This document shows, piece after piece, positions 3,579 through 61,553 of a stretch of 64,000 nt of DNA (position 1 is its first letter; every line of letters starts with the position of its first letter). The position numbers were made by a program, and so were the translations under genes. This DNA comes from Clostridia bacterium (GTDB lineage: Bacteria; Bacillota; Clostridia; TANB77; CAG-508). The DNA is taken from positions 79,216 through 143,215 of the forward strand of contig JAGBAJ010000038.1 of assembly GCA_017939755.1 (NCBI GenBank), given 5' to 3'. The notes under the pieces are model-generated. The model was given only the letters and a program-made list of their open reading frames with translations, had not been told where the DNA came from and did not search any database.

Positions 3579-4436
3579 ATGAATTTAGCAAATAATTGGA
3601 GCGACTATCAAATATTAGATATGGCAAATGGAGAAAAACTTGAAAAATGGAAAGACATCATTCTTGTAAGACCAGACCCTCAAATAATTTGGAGAGATAA
3701 GTCATTTCCAGAAAAATGGAAAAATGCCAATGCAGAATACTTAAGAAGCAATACTGGCGGGGGACAATGGAAATATAATAAAAAAATTCCAGATACTTGG
3801 CAGGTTAAATACAAGGAATTAACCTTTAATATTAAACCCATGGGATTTAAACATACAGGTTTATTTCCTGAGCAAGCAGTTAATTGGGATTGGATGATGA
3901 ATAAAATAAAGAATGCTAATAGAGAAATTAAAGTTTTGAATTTATTTGCATATACTGGTGGAGCAACTGTGGCATGCTTGGCTGCTGGTGCGGCAGTAAC
4001 TCATGTTGATAGCTCTAAAGGAATGGTAGCATGGGCAAAAGAAAATGTTATTTCTTCAGGTTTGCAAGATAGACAAGTTAGATACCTTATTGATGATGTT
4101 GTTAAATTTGTGAACCGAGAAATTAGAAGAGGAAATAAATATGACGCTATAATTATGGATCCACCATCTTATGGCAGGGGAACAAATGGAGAAGTATGGA
4201 AATTTGAAGAAAATATTTATGATTTAGTACAATTGTGCACGAAGGTTTTAAGTGATAAACCGTTATTTTTCCTTATAAATTCATATACAACAGGAATTTC
4301 AAGTATGGTACTAGAAAATATACTAAAACTTAATATAAAAAATAAAGGAAAATACAGTAATGGAGAAATTGGAATTCCTATGCAAAATTCTAGTTTAGTG
4401 TTACCATGTGGAATATTTGGCCGTTGGGAAGAGTAA
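3579..4436 (+). CDS. Class I SAM-dependent methyltransferase (RlmI/YccW-like catalytic domain)
   Basis: NLFAYTGGATVA (SAM motif I) and IIMDPPSYGRG (motif IV, DPP). Confidence 0.75.
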   Translation: MNLANNWSDYQILDMANGEKLEKWKDIILVRPDPQIIWRDKSFPEKWKNANAEYLRSNTGGGQWKYNKKIPDTWQVKYKELTFNIKPMGFKHTGLFPEQAVNWDWMMNKIKNANREIKVLNLFAYTGGATVACLAAGAAVTHVDSSKGMVAWAKENVISSGLQDRQVRYLIDDVVKFVNREIRRGNKYDAIIMDPPSYGRGTNGEVWKFEENIYDLVQLCTKVLSDKPLFFLINSYTTGISSMVLENILKLNIKNKGKYSNGEIGIPMQNSSLVLPCGIFGRWEE

Positions 4437-4512
4437 ATGGTGGAAAAACAAATTTTTCCCAGCTGGATTAGTGTCCTGAGGAAAAAACGAAAAATTATGA
4501 AAGGAATAAAAA

Positions 4513-5196
4513 ATGCAGAATATAAATGTATTATATGAAGATAACCATATTATTGTAGTAGAAAAAATAGTAAATATTCCATCCCAAGCAGACAAAACTG
4601 GTGATATAGATATGCTTACGATTATAAAAGATTATCTTAAGCAAAAATATAATAAACCAGGCAATGTATATTTGGGTTTAGTTCATAGATTAGATAGACC
4701 AGTTGGTGGTATTATGGTTTTTGCTAAAACTTCAAAAGCCGCTGCAAGACTGAGCGAAGAGGTTAGAAGTAAGCAATTTGAAAAACGTTACTTAGTAATA
4801 GCAAATGGAAAATTTGAAGCTAAAATAGGAACATTTGAAGACTACTTATTAAAGAATCAAGCAAAAAATATGAGCAAAGTTGTTAAGGAAGGAACAAAGA
4901 ATTCTAAACTTGCTGTACTCGATTATGAAATTATAAAATATGATCCAGATTTAGATTTATCTGTTGCAAAAATAAACTTACATACAGGTAGACATCATCA
5001 AATTAGAGTTCAGCTTGCTAGTAGAAATCACAGTATATATGGTGATCAAAAGTATGGCGGAAGAGGTCATGGAAAACAAATTTGCTTATGGGCATATAGC
5101 CTAAAAATTATTCATCCAGTTACAAAGAAGGAATTAAATTTTGAATTGCTTCCACAAAAGATTGGTTCATGGAAAATTATAGAAGATTGTATGTAG
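4513..5196 (+). CDS. RluA-family pseudouridine synthase (no S4 domain)
   Basis: HRLDRPVGGIMVFAKT catalytic Asp motif and HTGRHHQIRVQ motif. Confidence 0.85.
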   Translation: MQNINVLYEDNHIIVVEKIVNIPSQADKTGDIDMLTIIKDYLKQKYNKPGNVYLGLVHRLDRPVGGIMVFAKTSKAAARLSEEVRSKQFEKRYLVIANGKFEAKIGTFEDYLLKNQAKNMSKVVKEGTKNSKLAVLDYEIIKYDPDLDLSVAKINLHTGRHHQIRVQLASRNHSIYGDQKYGGRGHGKQICLWAYSLKIIHPVTKKELNFELLPQKIGSWKIIEDCM

Positions 5197-5261: not shown

Positions 5262-5425
5262 TATTGTTATATATTAGGAAAGTCATGCTGAATTTTCCTA
5301 ATATATATAAGCTTTGCAAAAACAGATGCACAGAAATTTTATGCAATAAAATTTCGTGCTGAACATCTATTAGTTGTGTGAATGAATACATAGGAAATTT
5401 ACTGAATAAACAAAGATTTTTCAAA
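5262..5425. repeat. Family B mosaic repeat (copy B1)
   Basis: Hairpin module TATATATTAGGAAAGTCATGCTGAATTTTCCTAATATATA, followed by ...AACAGATGCACAGAAATTTTATGCAATAAAATTTCGTGCTGAACATCTATTAG...GTGTGAATGAA. Shared with 7411-7641 and 16931-17175. Confidence 0.8.
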
Positions 5426-7410: not shown

Positions 7411-7641
7411 TTTGTTATACATTAGGAAAGTCATGTTGACTTTTCCTAATGTATAAAGAGGGCTTCGCCGAAAACAGATGCACAGAAATTTTATTGCATA
7501 AAATTTCGCGCCGAACATCGATTAGCCGTGTGAATGAAATGAATTACGGATAATACATACACAGGAAATTCACGGAAAACCTTCGATTTTCCGATTTGTT
7601 CTATAAGATTAAGATTTGTGCCCAGAAGGAATGGAGTTAAT
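7411..7641 (+). repeat. Family B mosaic repeat fused to SD module (copy B2)
   Basis: Hairpin module TACATTAGGAAAGTCATGTTGACTTTTCCTAATGTA, then GGCTTCGCCGAAAACAGATGCACA..., ending AAGATTTGTGCCCAGAAGGAATGGAG just before the yqfC ATG. Confidence 0.8.
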
Positions 7642-10852: not shown

Positions 10853-10860
10853 GGGAAAAT

Positions 10861-11011
10861 GTGAAAGATAATTGATTTTTGCATCGTTAAATTTCACTTT
10901 AAATCTAATCAATGTGCAAAAAGCACGCCTCATAGATTTAAAACTCATTTGCCTTGCAAAAATGCAATTCTTTTTCATATTAGATTTTGTAGAGAAGGAA
11001 TGGAGAATTTT
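10861..11011 (+). repeat. Family A MITE-like element plus SD module (copy A2) between ybeY and era
   Basis: About 90 % identical by eye to 1255-1408. Ends ...TAGATTTTGTAGAGAAGGAATGGAGAATTTT followed by the ATG. Confidence 0.85.
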
Positions 11012-11917
11012 ATGAGCGAGGAATTTAAATCGGGATTTGTCTCAATGATGGGGAGAACTAATGTAGGAAAGTCAAGTATAATGAATAGTTTGGTTAAAGA
11101 AAAAGTAGCTGCAATAGCAAATAAACCACAAACAACAAGAAATGCTATAAGAGCCATTGTTAACAGAGACAACCTACAAATAGTTTTTATTGATACACCT
11201 GGTATTCATAAACCAAAATCGAAACTTGGAAATGTAATGGTTGAAACTGCTTTTGGCGTCGTTCCAGATGTTGATGTTGTGTTATTTGTTATTGAGGCTA
11301 CATCCGATAGCATTGGAAAAGGTGATAGAATTATTCTTGATAGAATAAAAGAGTCCAATAAAAAGGCAATTTTAATAATTAATAAAATCGATTTGGTAAG
11401 GAGAGAAAGTATTGCTAAACTTATTGATTTATATAAAGATGAGTATAATTTTGAAGCGATAATTCCTGTATCTGTTGAAAAAAATATAAATATGGATGCA
11501 ATAATTGATGAAATTAGTAAACATTTAAAAGTTGGTCCTGCATATTATGATATAGAGGAATATACAGACCAAACTTTAAGACAGTTAGTAGAAGAAATTA
11601 TTAGAGAAAAAGCATTAAGGCTTCTAAATGATGAAGTTCCTCATGGAATATATGTAGAAACAGAAAAAATGAAAGAGCGTGAATCTAAGTCAGGAGAACC
11701 TATATACGATGTTGATGCAACAATATATTGTTTAAGAAATTCTCACAAGGGAATAATTATTGGAAAAGACGGAAATATGCTCAAAAAAATTGCATCGTAT
11801 GCAAGAATGGATTTGGAGAAAATGCTAGATGTAAAAATAAATTTAAAGGTATGGGTTAAAGTCAAAGAAGATTGGCTAAATAATGATAGTCTTGTTAAAA
11901 AATTTAAATTACAATAG
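11012..11917 (+). CDS. era: GTPase Era
   Basis: GFVSMMGRTNVGKSS (G1), DTPG (G3), NKID (G4), and a C-terminal KH domain. The start is taken at the ATG after GGAG. The upstream 21 codons are repeat read-through. Confidence 0.95.
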   Translation: MSEEFKSGFVSMMGRTNVGKSSIMNSLVKEKVAAIANKPQTTRNAIRAIVNRDNLQIVFIDTPGIHKPKSKLGNVMVETAFGVVPDVDVVLFVIEATSDSIGKGDRIILDRIKESNKKAILIINKIDLVRRESIAKLIDLYKDEYNFEAIIPVSVEKNINMDAIIDEISKHLKVGPAYYDIEEYTDQTLRQLVEEIIREKALRLLNDEVPHGIYVETEKMKERESKSGEPIYDVDATIYCLRNSHKGIIIGKDGNMLKKIASYARMDLEKMLDVKINLKVWVKVKEDWLNNDSLVKKFKLQ

Positions 11918-12865: not shown

Positions 12866-12877
12866 CAATTAATAGTT

Positions 12878-13075
12878 AAAATTCACAGCTAAATAATAAA
12901 GATTAGTGATATAGTGTAAATTTATAATATTACGCCCCAACTGCATAAGAAAATTTATATTTTTACTGTGTTGTAAAAATTAAATTCTCTAATTTGCTGG
13001 TCCTCACCTTAACTTCATATTATAAATTTACACTATATCACTAATCTTATATGAAAATAAGTTAAGTTGTGAGTT
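12878..13075 (+). repeat. Family R palindromic MITE-like element (copy R1)
   Basis: A 32-bp perfect stem (12899-12930 with 13017-13048) flanks the core TACGCCCCAACTGCA...TTTGCTGGTCCTCACCTTAACTTC. Outer ends are AAATTCACAGCT and a degenerate AAGTTGTGAGTT. Confidence 0.85.
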
Positions 13076-13118
13076 GGAACAATCAACATAATTTTCTATC
13101 AAAAAATAAAAAAAGCTC

Positions 13119-13164: not shown

Positions 13165-13360
13165 AGCTATTCTAATCCCTGCATAGTGCGTGTAGACTGA
13201 AATTTTAGAACCAACGCGGATTAAACGGGAATCTGCCTTTGGATGTGGCGTGCAAGCTTAACTCGTATTAAGAAGCCCAGAAGCATTCAACAAGATACCC
13301 ACCTGTGAAAGCAGGTCCTTAAAATTTCACTAATCCTTACGGCTAAAGCGGGGCTCTTTT
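13165..13360 (+). ncRNA. ssrS: 6S RNA (SsrS)-like regulatory RNA
   Basis: About 195-nt non-coding rod. The 5' TCCCTGC pairs with the 3' GCGGGG, and TGAAATTTTA (13198-) pairs with TAAAATTTCA (13319-). From memory, it contains blocks reminiscent of E. coli and B. subtilis 6S (GATGTGGCG, GAAGCC, CATTCA, CCCACCTG...GCAGGTC hairpin). It has its own promoter and a downstream terminator. Confidence 0.65.
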
Positions 13361-16932: not shown

Positions 16933-17175
16933 TATTTATATATTAGGAAAGTCATGCTGATTTTTCCTAATATATAAAAAAGGCTTCGCCGAAAACAGAT
17001 GCACATCGATTAGCCGTGCGTAACGAAGTTAAGATAGCTGTGCGAATGAAATGAGCTACAGATATCTTATGCAAAGCTTAGCTACGGATAATACATGCGC
17101 CGAACAAATTCACGGAAAATCTTCGGTTTCCAGATTTGTTCTCTAATATGGAAAGTAGAACTTTCCTAAATACGT
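16931..17175 (+). repeat. Family B mosaic repeat (copy B3)
   Basis: Hairpin module TATATATTAGGAAAGTCATGCTGATTTTTCCTAATATATA, then GGCTTCGCCGAAAACAGATGCACA, ...ACGGATAATACATGCGCCGAACAAATTCACGGAAAATCTTCGGTTTCCAGATTTGTTCT. Confidence 0.8.
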
Positions 17176-36720: not shown

Positions 36721-36745
36721 AAAGTCTATAATATTTAAGGAATTC

Positions 36746-36811
36746 AAGATATAATATTAATTTATAAGTTTCGACCCCACACGGAAGAATAAGTAATTGT
36801 TGCTGTGCTTT
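36746..36811 (+). repeat. Family R repeat, truncated left half (copy R2')
   Basis: AAGATATAATATTAATTTATAAGTTTCGACCCCACACGGAAGAATAAGTAATTGTTGCTGTGCTTT aligns with 52541-52605 of the full copy. The right half is absent. Confidence 0.7.
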
Positions 36812-36837
36812 ATAATTGTATAATTTAAAATAAAAAA

Positions 36838-36868
36838 ATAGCTAGGCGCAAAAGCCTAGCTATTTTTT
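36838..36868. terminator. Bidirectional rho-independent terminator
   Basis: Stem ATAGCTAGGC / GCCTAGCTAT flanked by an A7 run (5') and a T6 run (3'). It lies between convergent mutS and the 36915-37535 gene, and is followed by a family-B hairpin module (36867-36903). Confidence 0.75.
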
Positions 36869-36914
36869 ATATAATAGGGAAGTCAAACTTTCCTATTATA
36901 TAAAATAAAAATTA

Positions 36915-40465: not shown

Positions 40466-40620
40466 GTTGAAAAATAATTACAATTTTGGCTGTGTCAAAG
40501 TTTATTTAAAACGCGGTTACATACAATAAGTATGCGTTCTTGCTTTTTAAATTGAATTTTCCTTGCCGAAATTTAATTCTTTTCCAACTGGATTTGTGCT
40601 TAGAAGGAATGGAGTAATAT
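40466..40620 (+). repeat. Family A' MITE-like element plus SD module (copy A'2)
   Basis: TIRs GTTGAAAAATAATTACAATTTTGGC / GCCGAAATTTAATTCTTTTCCAAC, then TGGATTTGTGCTTAGAAGGAATGGAG, and the ATG at 40621. Confidence 0.85.
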
Positions 40621-41346
40621 ATGGATATCAAGTTAATTACAAAAAAATGTCCAAATTGTGGAGCAAATTTAAAATTTAATATGAGTGATACTTCTGTTAC
40701 ATGTGAGTATTGCGGAACATATGCACTAATAGAGCATGATAGAAAAAATATGTATACTACTACAGAACCTGGCGTAAATAGAATATATGTAAATAAAGCT
40801 GGAGAGGTATTTAAGTGGGTAAGCCGTGCAATTATATCTGCAATGCTATTAATATTTGGAATTATGATGTGCTCGTTAAGTAGCCCTATTTATGGAGTTA
40901 TTTTAATTTTTGGTGCAATATTAACAATGTTGCCAATATCAATAAAGGGAATTGACAAGATACCACATTTGAGAGCTGCAATAATTGCTATAATATTTTT
41001 TGTTGGTTTCTTTGGCGGATGTATGTCTATGTACGAATTACCATCAGAATTTCAAGGGAAATACGTATCAGATACTTCAGGTATTATTGTTGAAATTAAA
41101 GGAAATAACATTAAAGTTACAGATGGTGATTATGTTGTGAAAGAAAAATTATATACGTGGGAAGAAACCTGGGGACACGTTACATATCACAATATAAAAG
41201 TAAACAATGGTGAGTATGAATTTAGATTGGTGGATCATGGTGGGGTAGAATTTCAATTTTATGAGAGAGCTCCATATGGCACCCCAAAAACTTTTTATTA
41301 CAATACAAAAAATAAGAGCAAATATATTTGTGAAGAAAAATATTAG
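40621..41346 (+). CDS. Zinc-ribbon membrane protein, function unknown
   Basis: N-terminal CPNCG...CEYCG, 3-4 TM helices, and a soluble C-domain. Confidence 0.6.
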   Translation: MDIKLITKKCPNCGANLKFNMSDTSVTCEYCGTYALIEHDRKNMYTTTEPGVNRIYVNKAGEVFKWVSRAIISAMLLIFGIMMCSLSSPIYGVILIFGAILTMLPISIKGIDKIPHLRAAIIAIIFFVGFFGGCMSMYELPSEFQGKYVSDTSGIIVEIKGNNIKVTDGDYVVKEKLYTWEETWGHVTYHNIKVNNGEYEFRLVDHGGVEFQFYERAPYGTPKTFYYNTKNKSKYICEEKY

Positions 41347-41383: not shown

Positions 41384-41416
41384 GATTCAAAGTATAACGC
41401 TTTGAATCTCTATTTT
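41384..41416 (+). terminator. Putative terminator hairpin
   Basis: Stem GATTCAAAG / CTTTGAATC with a T-rich tail. Confidence 0.5.
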
Positions 41417-41510
41417 ATATAATAGGAAAGCTCTACTTTCCTATTATATAAAAAATAAACATTGCACACAAATTTTCTTTGAAAATTTGGCGCATGAACA
41501 AATAAACATT
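41413..41510 (+). repeat. Family B repeat, partial (copy B5)
   Basis: Hairpin module TATATAATAGGAAAGCTCTACTTTCCTATTATATA, then AACATTGCACACAAATTTTCTTTGAAAATTTGGCGCATGAACAAAT (related to the second module of B1). Confidence 0.65.
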
Positions 41511-48485: not shown

Positions 48486-48575
48486 AAAATACCTCCGAGA
48501 AAAAATATAATATATAGTATATGCAATAAAATAAAAAAAGATAATAAATGAATCTTTAAAAAGAAGTTACCAATT

Positions 48576-48796
48576 GTTACAATTCACAGCTTTAAAATTA
48601 TGTAATAAAGATTAGCAATATAATGTAAATTTATAATATTACGCCCCAACTACATAAGAGAATCTATTTTTTTTACAGCGTGATACACTTGTAAAAATTA
48701 GATTCTCTAATTTGTTGGTCCCCACCTTAACTTCATATTATAAATTTACATTATATTGCTAATCTTATATGAAATTAAGCTGTGAATCGTAGTTAC
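48576..48796 (+). repeat. Family R palindromic MITE-like element (copy R3)
   Basis: A 32-bp perfect stem (48608-48639 with 48735-48766) and the core TACGCCCCAACTACA...TTTGTTGGTCCCCACCTTAACTTC. Ends are GTTACAATTCACAGC / GCTGTGAATCGTAGTTAC. AGTTACCAATT occurs at both borders. Confidence 0.85.
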
Positions 48797-48956
48797 CAAT
48801 TTGTCAGATAAAAAGATAAAATCAAAAAAACCATATATAACTTTTTCAGTTAATATATGGTTAATAATATACATAAGAAATTGGAGAGGAAGAGCTTCAG
48901 TTGCCTGAAATCTCCTCCTAATGCACTCCTAGGGAATTTGCCATGATCCGCAATAC

Positions 48957-49199
48957 TTATTTGATAAGATCGCGGATGAAGTTAATCACTGCAGCTATGC
49001 CGAGGCCAATGATGACCACTGCAATGACCATCTGAATGGTGAAGTTGATTTTTGCGATTTCGTAGATGGACCAAATTGCTGCAAATACTGCCAAAAACGC
49101 GTCGAACACAAGCTTTCTAGCCTTTTTTGAATCTGCAAAACGCAGAATAATGACTTCGATTACGAGTGTAACGACTGTAGCAAGAAGATATCCTGTCAT
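48957..49199 (-). CDS. Small hydrophobic membrane protein (80 aa) in a G+C-rich islet
   Basis: ATG at 49199 preceded by AGGAGG (49215-49210). The product is MTGYLLATVVTLVIEVIIL...MVIAVVIIGLGIAAVINF, with 2-3 TM segments. G+C content and codon usage are visibly atypical for the window. Confidence 0.6.
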   Translation of the reverse strand: MTGYLLATVVTLVIEVIILRFADSKKARKLVFDAFLAVFAAIWSIYEIAKINFTIQMVIAVVIIGLGIAAVINFIRDLIK

Positions 49200-49382
49200 G
49201 GTAAATTCGCCTCCTTTCTCAAGTAAAATCTTACTTCGAGGACCCACCTTGTAGGGTGGTGAAGCGAGTCCCGGTGCATCTCCGGATACATCATTATTAT
49301 AGCACAGTAAATTAATTATGTAAATAGAAAAGACGAAAAATTAACTTTTTTTTTTAAAGGCTCCTATTTGGAAAAAATTGTA

Positions 49383-49714: not shown

Positions 49715-49893
49715 GCTCTAAGAAAGAATTTGTTTATAACTTTTAATATACTGCTATTGTTGCAAATAGTTGCTCTAAACAGAAGAAAATGGTATAATGA
49801 TGGATAATGTTTACAGAGATATTCTATCAAGTTTTGTAAAAATGATAAATTATTTAATGTGCAAAGCTATTAACCAAGAAAAGGAGAATAAGT

Positions 49894-52125
49894 ATGAGAG
49901 TATTAATATACGAAGGTAAGGAATTTAGGTCTATTAGTCAACTTGCTGCATACACGGGAATAGAAAGATCAAGATTAAGTAGAGCAATACAAAAGAATAC
50001 AGATACTCCGATAGAAGATATTATAGCCACTTTAAAAGTTACTAAAACATATACTTATAATGGAAAAGAATATGATTCAATTAGGTCTGCTGCAGATGAT
50101 TTAAAATTAAATAAAAATACACTATCTAAGTATCTAAAATTAGCAAACGATAACTTAGAAGCAGCTATGGAGTTATTCCACAAAGAGCATACTTTTGCTA
50201 CAATAGATGGTGTTAGGTATTCCTCTGCTGAAAAATTAGCACATAAACTAGGAGTTAACAACATTACGCTTACTAAATATATAAACAAAAGTGCAACTAT
50301 CGAGGAGGCAGTTCAAGCAATAATAAGTATGAAAAATAAATATGTTTGGAGAGGAAAATCGTACGAGAGTGATTCTAGCCTGGCGCGTGCAATGGGAATG
50401 TCACGACCTACACTTCTTAGACTTATCGAAAAAAATGAGAGGATGAGTTTAGACGATATATATGAGTTATATCATTCTAGAAATGACGGAAAATTTAAAG
50501 GATATACATATGGAGGAAAAGAATATTCTTCATTAAGAGGTATGCTTACAGATTTAGATATCTCTCCTCAAAGATATTACGGAAAAATCGAAGAATGTGG
50601 TGGTGATATGGAAAAGGCTATAGAGCTACTACTTGAAGAAAATGAAGAAAGAAAACATAAAGCTGAAGAAAAATTAAAATCAGAATTAGAGCAAAAAGCT
50701 CTAATGGAAAAGAAAAAAATAGAGGCTCCAGTGTACACATTTAATGGGGAGGAATATCAGTCTATAGCGGCATTATCAAGAGCAGTTGGGATTAGTGAAA
50801 CCACGATAAAAAGATTATTAGTTGAATACGGTAATGACTTAGATGCAGCCATAAAAGATAGAGCAGAAAATAAAATTATATACAACTATCAAGGTGTAGA
50901 ATATCCTAGCATAAAGGCTTTGTCTGCTGCCACAGGAATAAAAGAGCTAAGACTAGGAAGATATATACGAAAATATAATCGTGATGCTGAAAAAGCAATT
51001 TTTATGATCAAACTAAGAGATTCTAGACTAAAAGCTAATAAAGAGAAAGATTCAGATATAAATATTCAAGATATAGCAATTATATTAGGTATTAAACGTA
51101 GAGATTTAGAAACATTACTTAATAGTGGGATGTCCATTGATGAGATAAAAGATAGTTTATCCAGAGGAGATTTATCTGTAGCTGAAAGAGGTATCAGAGC
51201 AAAAAAAGTAATGTATGATGAAAAACAAAGTTTGCATGAATATTGTGTAGAGCATGGTTTGAACTATAGTTGTATATATTATGCAATGACAACCTATGGA
51301 AAGACTAAGGAACAAGCAATACAAAACTATAAGGAAAATGGACAAAAAATACCGACTGCATGGATTTATGAAAGATATGGAGTTTTACTAAAACATTTAT
51401 TACTTTCAGAAAATATAGATTCAAAAAAAATTATTGCACATATGCGTGTATTTGGTACTTCTTTAGAGGAGGCAATTGAAAACTATATAATTGATGATAT
51501 CTCCAAAGAAAGAGATTTAGATAAATTTTGGCAACGCGAAGTATATTCAGCTCTTACATTAGATATTTTTTCTGAGGATGAAAAAAATGATTTTATAAAA
51601 GAGTTTAGGATAAATTCAGATGAGATACAGGCTACAGAAGATTGTAAAGCAAGAATTGACCAAGTAAAAAGAAAGATGCTTCTTTACGAAATGTCTGAAT
51701 GTATACAAGAGGAACTATTTACTAAAACTGAAATGGCTACAATTATGCGTATGTACAATATATCTGCAGATGAACTTGAAACAATTTTCTTGGAGTTATA
51801 TTCTAAATTTGATAATAAAGTATTATTAGGTAGTGAGCAAGATGAGTTAACGAGAAGAAGGCAGATAATACAATATATAAAGGAATTACCAAGTTATTCT
51901 GAAGAGAATATTAGTGATTTACGAGCAAAAGTTTCTGAGGATGAGTATAAACATATTATAGAAACGTCAAATTTAATTCAGACATACAAAGAAGCGGTTA
52001 CTACTGATGCAGATTTATTAAAGCTTATGAGATCCACTGTACGTGATAATATATCAACTAATGTAGAAACAAGAAAAGAGTTATCTAAATCAATTGAACC
52101 AAAAGATAAAATAGTTAAAAGATAG
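49894..52125 (+). CDS. Hypothetical 743-aa protein made of tandem NUMOD1-like HTH modules
   Basis: At least 7 repeats of about 49 aa, Y.Y.GKEY.S...LA...GI....L.RYI.K.....E.AI (for example YTYNGKEYDSIRSAADDLKLNKNTLSKYLK and YTFNGEEYQSIAALSRAVGISETTIKRLL), plus degenerate copies. No nuclease motif was seen. Confidence 0.65.
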   Translation: MRVLIYEGKEFRSISQLAAYTGIERSRLSRAIQKNTDTPIEDIIATLKVTKTYTYNGKEYDSIRSAADDLKLNKNTLSKYLKLANDNLEAAMELFHKEHTFATIDGVRYSSAEKLAHKLGVNNITLTKYINKSATIEEAVQAIISMKNKYVWRGKSYESDSSLARAMGMSRPTLLRLIEKNERMSLDDIYELYHSRNDGKFKGYTYGGKEYSSLRGMLTDLDISPQRYYGKIEECGGDMEKAIELLLEENEERKHKAEEKLKSELEQKALMEKKKIEAPVYTFNGEEYQSIAALSRAVGISETTIKRLLVEYGNDLDAAIKDRAENKIIYNYQGVEYPSIKALSAATGIKELRLGRYIRKYNRDAEKAIFMIKLRDSRLKANKEKDSDINIQDIAIILGIKRRDLETLLNSGMSIDEIKDSLSRGDLSVAERGIRAKKVMYDEKQSLHEYCVEHGLNYSCIYYAMTTYGKTKEQAIQNYKENGQKIPTAWIYERYGVLLKHLLLSENIDSKKIIAHMRVFGTSLEEAIENYIIDDISKERDLDKFWQREVYSALTLDIFSEDEKNDFIKEFRINSDEIQATEDCKARIDQVKRKMLLYEMSECIQEELFTKTEMATIMRMYNISADELETIFLELYSKFDNKVLLGSEQDELTRRRQIIQYIKELPSYSEENISDLRAKVSEDEYKHIIETSNLIQTYKEAVTTDADLLKLMRSTVRDNISTNVETRKELSKSIEPKDKIVKR

Positions 52126-52152
52126 TTTAATTGTTACGCAAGGAGGAGTGTT

Positions 52153-52500
52153 ATGTTAGATAGTAGAGCATACACCGAAGTGAATGCTATAATTAGTGCC
52201 TTATCTATACACAAAAGGAATAAAATTCCAGAGAAAGTAAGAGCTAATATAAAGCAAAAGATGGATAAGAGCTATGTATTTACCATTGATTGTAATGATA
52301 TAAAAAATACAATACTATTAGAAGATACAAAGAAAATTTTATCTGTATTATATGTTGATTATTTTTCAACATATGCAGAGCGAGAAATAGCTACTAAGAT
52401 TGAAAAAGATAGATATTTAAAAGAAGAGCAATTAAAATTAAAAAGATTTCCTATTGATGTTTTTGAAAAGAGAATAAAAAAGTATCGCGGAAATGGATAA
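52153..52500 (+). CDS. Hypothetical small protein, paralog of 43578-43994
   Basis: AAGGAGG SD. The N-terminal 75 aa align with the ligA-linked small protein. Confidence 0.65.
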   Translation: MLDSRAYTEVNAIISALSIHKRNKIPEKVRANIKQKMDKSYVFTIDCNDIKNTILLEDTKKILSVLYVDYFSTYAEREIATKIEKDRYLKEEQLKLKRFPIDVFEKRIKKYRGNG

Positions 52501-52502
52501 AA

Positions 52503-52722
52503 TGTTACAATTTACAGCTAATAAGATCTTGTTAGAATTTAAAGATATAATATCAATTTATGAGTTCCACCCCAACTGCAGAGAATAAGTAATTGTTGCT
52601 TTGCTGTACGCTTGCAACATTCACTTATTCTACTTTGTTGGTCCCCGCCTTAATTTCACATCATAAATTGATATTATATCTTTAAAGTTTTATATATTGC
52701 TATTTAGCTGTGAATTGTAACA
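52503..52722 (+). repeat. Family R palindromic MITE-like element (copy R4, variant core)
   Basis: TIRs TGTTACAATTTACAGCT / AGCTGTGAATTGTAACA. Core CCACCCCAACTGCAGAGAATAAGT...ACTTATTCTACTTTGTTGGTCCCCGCCTTAATTTCA. Confidence 0.85.
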
Positions 52723-52808
52723 CTAAAATAATTGCATACAAAATTTTTATATTTTAGAGTTGTTTTTGTATATTCAGATATAATATAATGTAAGAAAAAG
52801 CAGGAATA

Positions 52809-52876
52809 GTGTGAAAGATAATTGATTTTCCAATTTGTTCTACAAGATTTGTGCTTGGAAGGAATGGAGGATTTGT
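52809..52876 (+). repeat. Family A short form plus SD module (copy A4)
   Basis: GTGTGAAAGATAATTGATTTTCCAATTTGTTCTACAAGATTTGTGCTTGGAAGGAATGGAGG. Confidence 0.7.
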
Positions 52877-54837: not shown

Positions 54838-55464
54838 ATGGCAATTTATATAATAATGGCTGTTATTGCGTATGCAATAGGAAGTATAAACTTTTCTATT
54901 ATATTTAGTAAAAAGTTTGCAGGTTTTGATGTTAGAGAAAAAGGAAGTGGCAATGCTGGAACAACAAATATGCTTCGAAGTGTTGGAAAGGGATTAGCAG
55001 CATTAACACTTATATGTGATATTCTAAAAGGTGTTATTTCAATTCTAATTGCAATTGGAATTGGAAAAATTGCAAAAGATATTAAACCAGAAATTGTTGT
55101 TCAAGTAGCAGGTATATTTGCAATTATTGGACATACATTTCCAGTATATTTTGGATTTAAAGGTGGAAAAGGTGTTGCAACATCACTAGGAATATTATTA
55201 TTAACAAATTGGCAAATAGGATTAATATGTATGGTATTTGCATTAGTATTAATGATTTTGACAAGAATGGTTTCATTAGGATCAATAATGGCTGCAGTAC
55301 TATTTCCAATTCTAACAATATTTATAACAGATAATTATATTGTAGAAGGAAATTATATTATATTTGGCTTAATAATGGCTTTAATAGTAATATTTAATCA
55401 TAGATCAAACATAAAGAGAATATACAATGGAGAAGAAAACAGATTAAGTTTAAAGAAATCATAA
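54838..55464 (+). CDS. plsY: Glycerol-3-phosphate acyltransferase PlsY
   Basis: GSGNAGTTN, HTFPVYFGFKGGKGVAT, 5-6 TM segments. Alternative GTG at 54826. Confidence 0.93.
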   Translation: MAIYIIMAVIAYAIGSINFSIIFSKKFAGFDVREKGSGNAGTTNMLRSVGKGLAALTLICDILKGVISILIAIGIGKIAKDIKPEIVVQVAGIFAIIGHTFPVYFGFKGGKGVATSLGILLLTNWQIGLICMVFALVLMILTRMVSLGSIMAAVLFPILTIFITDNYIVEGNYIIFGLIMALIVIFNHRSNIKRIYNGEENRLSLKKS

Positions 55465-55469
55465 ATTAG

Positions 55470-55568
55470 AAATTAGGGACGGGGTTCAATTTTAAATAAT
55501 TTAAATTGGGGACGGGGTTCAATTCTAAATAATTTGAATAAGGGACGGAGTTCAATATTAAAGTATTT
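55470..55568 (+). repeat. Three tandem 33-bp direct repeats
   Basis: AAATTAGGGACGGGGTTCAATTTTAAATAATTT, AAATTGGGGACGGGGTTCAATTCTAAATAATTT, and GAATAAGGGACGGAGTTCAATATTAAAGTATTT, with a partial fourth unit to about 55587. Confidence 0.85.
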
Positions 55569-55636: not shown

Positions 55637-55842
55637 CTTGATATTTTAGGGCTCAAATAGTACAATATTAGTGTCAAAATAAGAAATTTTATAATTTATT
55701 AGGGTTATAATATTGATGCGATTTATTAATACAAAGAATTTTATTTTTGCATAAGTAAAGAGAAAGGTAAAATTTTAAACGAAGAATAGGATATATTTGG
55801 AATTTCAAAAGTTCAAATGAAGCATGTCCCTAGTTTTAAAAA

Positions 55843-55869
55843 TTTAAAATTGAACCCCGTCCCTAATTT
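55843..55869 (-). repeat. Inverted copy of the 33-bp repeat unit
   Basis: TTTAAAATTGAACCCCGTCCCTAATTT is the exact reverse complement of 27 nt of unit 1. It lies 23 nt upstream of the gpsA ATG. Confidence 0.8.
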
Positions 55870-55891
55870 AAATAGAAAGGAAGAAATTTTT

Positions 55892-61052: not shown

Positions 61053-61059
61053 AAGGATA

Positions 61060-61211
61060 GTGTGAAAGATAATTGATTTTTGCATCGTTAGATTTTATTT
61101 TATATCTAATTTACGTGAAAAAAAGCGTGCCTCATAGATTTGAACATTTACCTTGCAAAAATTCAATTCTTTTTCACACTAAATTTGTACTTAGAAGGGA
61201 TGGAGATTATT
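61060..61211 (+). repeat. Family A MITE-like element plus SD module (copy A3)
   Basis: GTGTGAAAGATAATTGATTTTTGCATCGTTAGATTTT...CCTTGCAAAAATTCAATTCTTTTTCACAC, then TAAATTTGTACTTAGAAGGGATGGAG. Confidence 0.85.
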
Positions 61212-61553
61212 ATGAGTAATGTTTATGACGCAGCCAACAAATTGGCAAGTGAAATAAGACAATCAGAAGAATTTATAAAATATAGAGATGCAAAGAAAAA
61301 GGTTCTTGCTAATCCAGATCAAAAAGAAAGAATTGAAGAATTTGAAAAAATTAGATACGAGGTTCAAGTACTATCAATGGAAAAAGGAGAGAAAAGCCCA
61401 GAAAAAATGCAAAAATTACAAGACTTATATACAATTTTAATTGATAATAAAGACATTAAAGAATATTTCGATTTAGAGGTTCGATTCAATGTTATGGTTG
61501 CTGATATAAACAAGATAATAGCGGAGTCAATGGAAGATATATTTGTAAAATAA
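61212..61553 (+). CDS. YlbF/YmcA-family (UPF0342) regulatory protein
   Basis: VYDAANKLASEIRQSEEFIKYRDAKKKV... The size (113 aa) is typical of the family. Confidence 0.7.
   Translation: MSNVYDAANKLASEIRQSEEFIKYRDAKKKVLANPDQKERIEEFEKIRYEVQVLSMEKGEKSPEKMQKLQDLYTILIDNKDIKEYFDLEVRFNVMVADINKIIAESMEDIFVK

Follow-up and report, generated by a model that had tools for sequence, protein, structure and literature searches.

Family R in the window

The stretch of DNA analysed here, referred to below as the window, covers 64,000 nucleotides (nt), positions 79,216 to 143,215 of contig JAGBAJ010000038.1 (GenBank assembly GCA_017939755.1), and belongs to a 221-kb metagenome scaffold of a spore-forming Clostridia bacterium. 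Its G+C content (GC) is 29% and its housekeeping genes, including htpG, era, recO, the 6S RNA gene, prmC, mutS, ligA, asnB, rpmF, der, plsY and gpsA, are nearly all carried by the + strand. The window also contains five copies of a small palindromic repeat, hereafter Family R. An earlier note, made from the sequence alone, had described this repeat as a rod-like element with a strand-locked core, and had taken it for a functional RNA or single-stranded DNA structure. The five copies are indeed found at the places named in that note, with boundaries shifted by a few bases only.

The elements are organized in layers. Over a length of about 205-225 bp, a terminal repeat of 16-17 bp is followed by a subterminal spacer of 15-25 bp, an inner inverted repeat of 25-32 bp, a core and an apical hairpin. 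R1 (12874-13081, + strand) is a full copy of 208 bp, the terminal repeats of which are degenerate. Its inner stem is formed by 12899-12930 and 13017-13048, with core motif M1 at 12933-12945, the apical hairpin at 12948-12990 and core motif M2 at 12993-13017. This copy lies in the interval that separates recO from the 6S RNA gene, its insertion point being bounded by the recO stop codon (12865) on one side and by the stretch immediately 5' of the 6S gene on the other. The 6S RNA gene itself (13173-13358, + strand; Rfam RF00013, 108.8 bits) starts 92 nt 3' of R1. R3 (48575-48794, + strand) is a full copy of 220 bp, with an inner stem at 48608-48639 and 48735-48766, M1 at 48642-48654, the apical hairpin at 48657-48708 and M2 at 48711-48735. 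Its left terminal repeat (48575-48591) is exact, its right one (48778-48794) is degenerate, and the 6-bp duplication ACCAAT is found on both sides of the copy (48569-48574 and 48795-48800). R4 (52503-52722, + strand), also a full copy of 220 bp, represents a second subtype and has both terminal repeats intact. Its inner stem corresponds to 52538-52561 and 52663-52686, M1 to 52568-52580, the apical hairpin to 52582-52631 and M2 to 52634-52658; the flanking 6-mers are ATAAAA and CTAAAA.

The two remaining copies are incomplete. R2' (36738-36825, + strand), directly 3' of the mutS stop codon, corresponds to 88 bp from the interior of an R4-like copy (75% identity to 52534-52621). Of the element, there remain the left inner stem, M1 in degenerate form (36772-36785) and one half of the apical hairpin; terminal repeats are absent. 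The short form (360-449, − strand) is an R4-like copy from which the core and the apical hairpin are deleted, both terminal repeats being kept. Its orientation is opposite to that of R4.

R1 and R3 each form a perfect stem of 32 bp, and the three positions at which the stems differ are all mirrored in the other arm, as first noticed. The asymmetric, C-rich core is common to the copies and recurs in other species. R1, R3 and R4 possess its proposed flanks, CCCCAACTRCA and TTTGYTGGTCCYCRCCTTAAYTTCA, from which R2' deviates with CCCCACACGGA. The apical hairpins of the two subtypes had been considered as completely different; they have the hairpin base GAGAAT/ATTCTC in common.

Terminal repeats, target duplications and mobility

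The terminal inverted repeat of Family R reads TGTTACAATTCACAGC(T), is 16-17 bp long and has 5'-TG...CA-3' ends. It is found at both ends of R4, of the short form and of 12 elements elsewhere. Within the window, the terminal repeat TGTTACAATTCACAGCT has 7 matches at up to 3 mismatches, for 0.35 expected. The idea that all copies share these repeats holds for part of the set. R3 on its left side and R4 on its right side carry an exact match, and 1-2 mismatches are seen on the left side of R4 and in the short form. The repeat is eroded at both ends of R1 (2-3 mismatches) and at the right end of R3 (4 mismatches), and is absent from R2'. A target-site duplication is visible in the flanking 6-mers, which match on average at 4.06 of 6 positions, versus 2.07 in displaced controls; perfect pairs flank 5 of 18 elements and 0 of 180 controls. 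The elements, 90-222 bp in size, contain no open reading frame (ORF), stop codons closing all six frames, and a protein-coding reading was dropped for this reason. All of the 20 elements examined are intergenic.

The window copies were also compared with the corresponding loci of relatives. No R sequence is found in 20 loci of sister species having 94% and 91% Der identity. In these species, rpmF is directly followed by der and the asnB-rpmF spacer measures about 230 nt. R3 and R4 are also both missing in relatives with 97% Der identity. In the latter, the DJ-1 gene follows rpmF after 150 nt, and R4 is thus placed within an insertion of about 3.0 kb (49732-52746). This insertion is not present in the relatives with 97, 94 and 91% Der identity, and its junctions carry an AATTT repeat. 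Besides R4, it contains a gene for a 743-aa protein made of repeated NUMOD1/helix-turn-helix (HTH)-like units (49894-52125) and a 115-aa ORF (52153-52500). Neither was retained as a partner gene, no homologue being found near any other element. A composite transposon bounded by R3 and R4 was rejected as well, because the core gene rpmF lies between them and because the relatives show two separate insertions flanking rpmF.

Recent movement is documented in one element-dense species, represented by contigs L043 and L051-L060, which were retrieved by means of RecN variants with 99% identity or more to that of L043. The copy located between asd and recN is present in 8 contigs and absent from 3, its presence varying even between strains with identical RecN. 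The empty asd-recN site reads GTCAAA-ATAAAT-TGAC and the filled site has ATAAAT on both sides. In L051, six elements occur within 21.6 kb, one of them nested in another. At two sites, a full copy in some strains corresponds to a core-less derivative in others; the short form of the window is a product of this kind. Some copies are also interrupted by the end of an assembly contig. In species with 70% and 68% RecN identity, no element is found in the syntenic region. An inverton was rejected because all 8 strains that carry the asd-recN copy have it in one orientation with respect to recN and because the alternative allele is an empty site. It was also observed that a variant terminal repeat, TGTTACAGTTCAGTA, bounds type B copies (see below for core types) of the element-dense species (L051, 5897-6099, and the outer element at 4246-4597), which suggests a second, related transposase specificity.

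Family R has been active recently, inserting in AT-rich intergenic DNA with 6-bp duplications, and its copies decay by erosion of the ends, truncation and deletion of the palindrome interior, as seen in the degenerate ends of R1, in the R2' fragment and in the core-deleted forms. The statement of the earlier note that the repeat is not a decaying MITE (miniature inverted-repeat transposable element) is not supported, in view of the terminal inverted repeats, the 6-bp duplications, the filled and empty sites, the missing copies in relatives, the nested insertions and the decayed copies.

The location of many copies deserves consideration, since R1, R2', R4 and the elements L047, L049 and L050b lie 2-20 nt past a stop codon. 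As the rods are extremely stable in either orientation, and as such roles are documented for other MITEs (PMC3184786), it may be asked whether the copies are host-domesticated hairpins of untranslated regions (mRNA 3' stabilisers, RNase III targets or terminators), the pairing of which would be maintained by selection in place. This idea is disfavoured because no site is conserved, close relatives lacking copies at the corresponding positions and even strains differing in this respect. Moreover, copies decay in place, no terminator-like T-tract occurs within the element, and the conservation of the asymmetric core and of the terminal repeats would be left unexplained. Domestication is therefore held to be highly improbable.

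A wider superfamily with three types of cores

Further members were sought with the core and with the terminal repeats. A scan with a core 20-mer, one genome per species, gave one real locus (L002, in a metagenome-assembled genome from water-deer cecum) and two chance matches. The water-deer genome holds a full copy, 87% identical, with a perfect 6-bp duplication (AACATT on the strand shown), together with a core-deleted copy. A scan of metagenomes with a core 25-mer gave no match. Scanning metagenomes for a pair of terminal repeats at MITE spacing gave 11 matches, all 11 of which are real elements of 207-222 bp. They are found in other genomes, at loci with a GC of 27-31%, and further copies adjoin them. 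These elements define a superfamily having terminal repeats in common, arms that differ and GC-rich cores of three types. Type B, to which the R-like cores belong, reads CCCCAAC ... GGTCCCCACC. Type A is composed of ACCGCGTAAGCGACCAAACGAGCGnAAGCGAGTGCGATTGGAGC, a hairpin and GCGACACCAAGGTA. Type C has CGAACGAAGTGAG and TGCGATTGGAG in common with type A, in a changed order. The core types are regarded as related because the left motif of type B matches the reverse complement of GTGCGAATTGGAGC in type A.

The zones of the elements are unequally conserved. The mean pairwise identity is 0.87-0.97 in the terminal repeats (34-39% GC), 0.52-0.81 in the cores (42-58% GC) and 0.34-0.73 in the arms (9-22% GC). 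The superfamily is apparently undescribed in searchable sources, and a full-text search for the terminal-repeat string yielded no paper. It was also observed that a lone remnant of a terminal repeat, AGTTACAATTCACWGCT plus about 30 nt, occupies one site in both sister species (L017, 6979; L021, 6980-7010), between a 79-aa ORF and a DUF4116 gene; the remnant is absent from the window. With this remnant, the superfamily has an older history in the clade of the window organism.

A search of Rfam 15, covering the window, 6 loci and 241-nt slices and including the 6S, T-box, hammerhead, twister and hepatitis delta virus (HDV)-like models, matched no element of any core type, either at the gathering score or at an expectation value (E) up to 10. 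The 6S model matched the true 6S gene at 13173-13358 only. The difficulty, already expressed at the outset, of placing the repeat in a known motif family is therefore borne out, since no known RNA family matches. Several local resemblances failed inspection or the Rfam search and are not claimed. They concern a T-box sequence GGGUGGNACC, the geminivirus nonamer TAATATTAC in R1 and R3, hammerhead, twister and HDV cores, attC sites, plasmid single-strand origins, a Chi/KOPS-like G-rich motif and G-quadruplexes.

Pairing and fold

To read the symmetry of the elements, the right arm of each was reverse-complemented and aligned with the left arm. The terminal repeat zone is palindromic and conserved in all elements, the subterminal 15-25 nt are non-palindromic, and the inner stem of 25-32 bp is near-perfect in Watson-Crick pairing with a sequence that varies between subfamilies. 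In type A, 92.8% of the cells are paired, versus at most 46.5% when the partners are slid, and 19 pairs are changed on both sides, versus 9.1 +/- 2.0 in shuffles (0/500). The corresponding values for type B are 89.5% versus at most 45.5%, and 19 pairs versus 11.2 +/- 1.6 (0/500). The structure is thus kept despite sequence turnover, far beyond chance in both types, in agreement with what had been seen in the window copies. Every full copy gives a rod on folding (z-scores of -11 to -15), whichever strand is taken and whether as RNA or as DNA.

These data do not designate a strand. Arm mismatches of the G.T and A.C kinds are in the ratios 7:4 in type A and 13:17 in type B, with no G.U excess on either strand. 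At one and the same insertion, the substitutions that separate strains are wobble-neutral in 2 cases on one strand and in 3 on the other, and none is mirrored. Either strand, as RNA or as DNA, folds with z about -12 to -15. For R3, the two strands fold alike, with RNA energies of -80.7 and -86.7 kcal/mol and a DNA z-score of -12.2. Because pairing is strictly Watson-Crick, because no strand-specific G.U signal is seen and because both strands fold equally, the fold is best regarded as a DNA-level property or as a transposition requirement. The mirrored changes, from which a functional RNA or single-stranded DNA structure had been surmised, do not single out RNA. Two precedents are relevant here. 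Template switching at quasipalindromes makes imperfect inverted repeats perfect and is a DNA-level source of mirrored changes (PMC7202029). In addition, MITEs classically have long stem-loops, functional motifs and possible compensatory changes, as in bcr1 (PMC3184786).

Some features of the cores would nevertheless suit an element that is a vehicle for a structured non-coding RNA, such as a small regulatory RNA, a ribozyme, or an RNA cofactor or guide of the transposition machinery. In such a model, transcription of one strand would yield an RNA comprising the core and the stems that close it, and dispersal would be the sole role of the terminal repeats. The core is kept across species and subfamilies while the arms turn over, type A contains two mini-hairpins with loops of the GUAA/GAAA type and compensatory pairs, and the three core types share modules in permuted order, like circularly permuted ribozymes. 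Furthermore, the G-rich strand is the more stable one in 16 of 19 elements; the 5-bp helix enclosing the apical hairpin is 88.9% paired on this strand, its variation being restricted to A or G opposite U; and the L002A copy provides a G.U intermediate, again on the G-rich strand. However, the stability edge of the G-rich strand has to be discounted because G content alone predicts such an advantage, and the covariation of the 5-bp helix is non-significant, the helix failing the shuffle control (331/500). GNA and GNRA loops are unusually stable in DNA too. To these points are added the lack of G.U excess in the long stems, the 2:3 split of substitutions by strand, and the negative Rfam search, which extended to 241-nt slices. 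Promoter-like and terminator-like sites occur in the elements at background frequency, for which reason an intrinsic promoter or terminator was also dropped. Finally, the orientation relative to flanking genes is mixed, and some strains retain core-deleted copies at the same sites. Taken together, the RNA vehicle appears unlikely.

Orientation

As reported initially, all four cores of the window are on the + strand. This strand is leading according to GC skew, which lies between +0.16 and +0.28 throughout the window, and it is the C-rich strand of all four cores that it carries. The term strand-locked is not tenable, since type B elements outside the window are distributed 4:3 relative to the leading strand and since contig L050 carries both orientations among co-directional genes. 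Outside the window, the orientation relative to neighbouring genes is mixed. When all core types are considered, the C-rich strand is leading in 14 of 17 informative elements. The 10 of 13 elements outside the window that agree with the window orientation give a one-sided p of about 0.05. These counts depend on a leading strand called by GC skew, which on short contigs mostly reflects local gene direction, and on a common orientation of types A and C set through the A/B/C homology, that is, through short local similarities. The element is not strand-locked; an orientation bias is possible.

Such a bias would be expected if the element acted as single-stranded DNA in a replication-coupled manner, one strand folding and being recognised on the lagging-strand template and thereby fixing the orientation relative to the fork, on the model of integron attC sites, IS200/IS605 ends and plasmid single-strand origins. 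Apart from the orientation of the window cores and the 14 of 17 count over all core types, this hypothesis can call upon the strict Watson-Crick stems, the single-stranded DNA fold (z = -12.2) and the frequent deletions in the palindrome interior. It is at odds with the terminal inverted repeats and the 6-bp duplications, which point to double-strand integration of the DDE type and are not made by the single-strand chemistry of HUH enzymes or integrases. The type B ratio of 4:3, the two orientations at L050 and the above-mentioned dependence of the counts on GC skew and on short local similarities weaken it further, and we regard it as quite improbable.

Nature of Family R and proposed mechanism

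Considering the whole of these data, the favoured reading is that Family R groups non-autonomous DNA transposons (MITEs) of low-GC gut Clostridia, the rod-like fold of which reflects an inverted-repeat design rather than a host RNA gene. We give this reading a probability of about three in four. In the proposed mechanism, a DDE-type transposase recognizing the terminal repeats would mobilise the elements in trans. No autonomous element or transposase with these repeats turned up in the sequences searched (see below). The rod is the single-strand view of the inverted-repeat architecture. The mirrored differences are attributed to quasipalindrome template switching, to selection for a hairpin or cruciform on transposition-competent master copies, or to both, and not to a host RNA function. 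The fold is probably needed for, or produced by, propagation of the element. As to the core, it most likely is a cis-acting module that the element needs in order to propagate, because it is conserved alongside the terminal repeats. It could be a binding site for the transposase, for an accessory protein or for a host factor, or a structured nucleic-acid element. This assignment is the weakest step of the scheme.

Several observations weigh against the MITE reading. First, its parent is missing: in about 1.3 Mb of fetched loci, no pair of terminal repeats 0.06-4 kb apart encloses an ORF, and plasmids, phages and viral contigs likewise yielded no transposase or autonomous element bearing such repeats. 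In these searches, blastn of R3 against plasmids and phages gave no match, and the core and terminal-repeat scans of viral contigs gave chance matches only. Second, a symmetric cut-and-paste element does not predict the skew of 14 out of 17 in orientation. Third, the inner stem is perfect but the subterminal zone is non-palindromic, a selectivity poorly explained by a purely mechanical symmetrising process. In the same vein, the L002A copy is intermediate between R1 and R3, with A.C on one strand and G.U on the other, a state that looks like stepwise compensation, unlike one-step template switching. Moreover, the type A mini-hairpins, which are local and have GNRA-like loops and two compensatory pairs (helix 6), lie outside the global palindrome. 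It is because these three features fit the mechanical account less well that selection on master copies is also allowed for in the mechanism. Finally, the conservation and the GC-richness of the core lack a mechanistic account.

Three features of the core call for an explanation: its conservation, which is exceeded by that of the terminal repeats only; its richness in G+C within a genome of 29% GC; and its occurrence, next to one and the same kind of terminal repeat, in at least three versions that are related and partly permuted. If the core were required in cis, it would reveal what the transposase, or an RNA, needs beyond terminal repeats. It is tempting to imagine, though this is a long shot, that the GC-rich cores are a mobile structured RNA module expressed in cis, as a cofactor, guide or small ribozyme, for a DDE-type system. 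If this were true, MITEs would keep just what the machinery needs, terminal repeats plus RNA, and RNA-assisted transposition, exemplified by the omega RNAs of IS200/IS605 and the bridge RNAs of IS110, would reach the classical cut-and-paste class.

On a more practical level, the terminal repeat TGTTACAATTCACAGC, the 6-bp duplication and the length of about 215 bp provide a diagnostic signature for a repeat that fragments the assemblies of several uncultured gut and rumen Clostridia. Annotation without this signature could take the repeat for an RNA gene. Copies that differ in presence between strains, insertions nested in other copies and deletions inside the palindrome also qualify the repeat as a live marker of genome plasticity in the lineages concerned.

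Other repeats and segments in the window and its relatives

Other repeated sequences were observed besides Family R. A second family, with units of up to about 150 nt, ends with GGAATGGAG and a start codon, and is found directly 5' of htpG, era, the DJ-1 gene, ylbF and other genes (1254-1411, 7602-7636, 10858-11015, 40554-40623, 52805-52869 and 61059-61214). It looks like a dispersed cassette carrying a promoter, a leader or a ribosome-binding site. Two families of short palindromic, terminator-like repeats, such as TTATATATTAGGAAAGTCATGCTGAxTTTTCCTAATATATAA, lie 3' of genes (5264-5336, 7415-7484 and 16936-17005, and also 36860-36911, 41405-41459 and 54863-54914). The plsY-gpsA interval contains three tandem units of 33 nt (AAATTAGGGACGGGGTTCAATTTTAAATAATTT) with inverted copies about 290 nt away (55470-55568 and 55815-55873), which may be another palindromic mobile element or array.

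The segment at about 48880-49330 has a G+C content visibly above that of its 29% surroundings. Its − strand contains an ORF of 96 aa (48957-49247), which is immediately preceded by a G+C-rich stretch. The segment is present in the relatives with 97% Der identity and absent at 94% and 91%, and it has no Pfam or Rfam match. In the sister species with 94% Der identity, a different palindromic element, GGGAAAAAGGGACGGTTCTCTTTGACA ... TGTCAAAGAGAACCGTCCCTTTTTCCC, is located 3' of mutS (L017, 880-1130, compared with L019). Its length varies between strains, and it is probably another MITE-like family.

Comparison with known systems

The IS200/IS605-derived PATE and REP elements, which move as single strands by means of HUH enzymes, carry subterminal hairpins next to a conserved tetra- or pentanucleotide and have neither terminal inverted repeats nor duplications, are ruled out by the terminal repeats and the 6-bp duplications of Family R. 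Resemblance is closer with DDE insertion sequences of the IS481/IS3 type, which have 5'-TG...CA-3' ends and a short duplication of fixed length. The IS481 duplication ranges from 4 to 15 bp, and the 6 bp of Family R fall within this range. Parentage with this type is a lead rather than a result, since no transposase gene with the terminal repeats of Family R turned up; IS21 and other families would also fit the TG...CA ends and the duplication size.

Among small repeats, ERIC/IRU and RUP are imperfect intergenic palindromes of 100-130 bp, with internal insertion or deletion variants and pairing conserved at the RNA level. They have no sequence similarity to Family R. ERIC is without a clear duplication or transposase-linked terminal repeats, whereas Family R has both terminal repeats and a duplication, and RUP is tied to IS630-Spn1 with a TA duplication instead of 6 bp. 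In the Correia elements (NEMIS) of Neisseria, full-length and internally deleted size classes exist. Like Family R, these elements are MITEs with terminal inverted repeats, long stem-loops and a functional core motif, in their case a site for integration host factor (IHF) and promoters (PMC3184786). They differ by 26-bp repeats of unrelated sequence, a TA duplication where Family R has 6 bp, and proteobacterial hosts. Moreover, their internal motif is an AT-rich protein site, in contrast to the GC-rich, structured core of Family R.

A further parallel is bcr1, a MITE-like repeat of about 155 bp from the Bacillus cereus group, the structure of which is kept by compensatory changes while the stability of the copies decays (PMC3184786). 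Like Family R, it is a small repeat dispersed between the genes of a Firmicute, with short flanking direct repeats and a distribution that is not conserved between related strains (PMC3184786). Transcription has been demonstrated for bcr1. The terminal repeats differ, and the duplication is of 5 bp in bcr1 versus 6 bp in Family R. The architectures are also distinct: bcr1 is a cruciform of two independent stem-loops, whereas Family R is one long rod and has, unlike bcr1, a GC-rich asymmetric core that exists in several permuted types.

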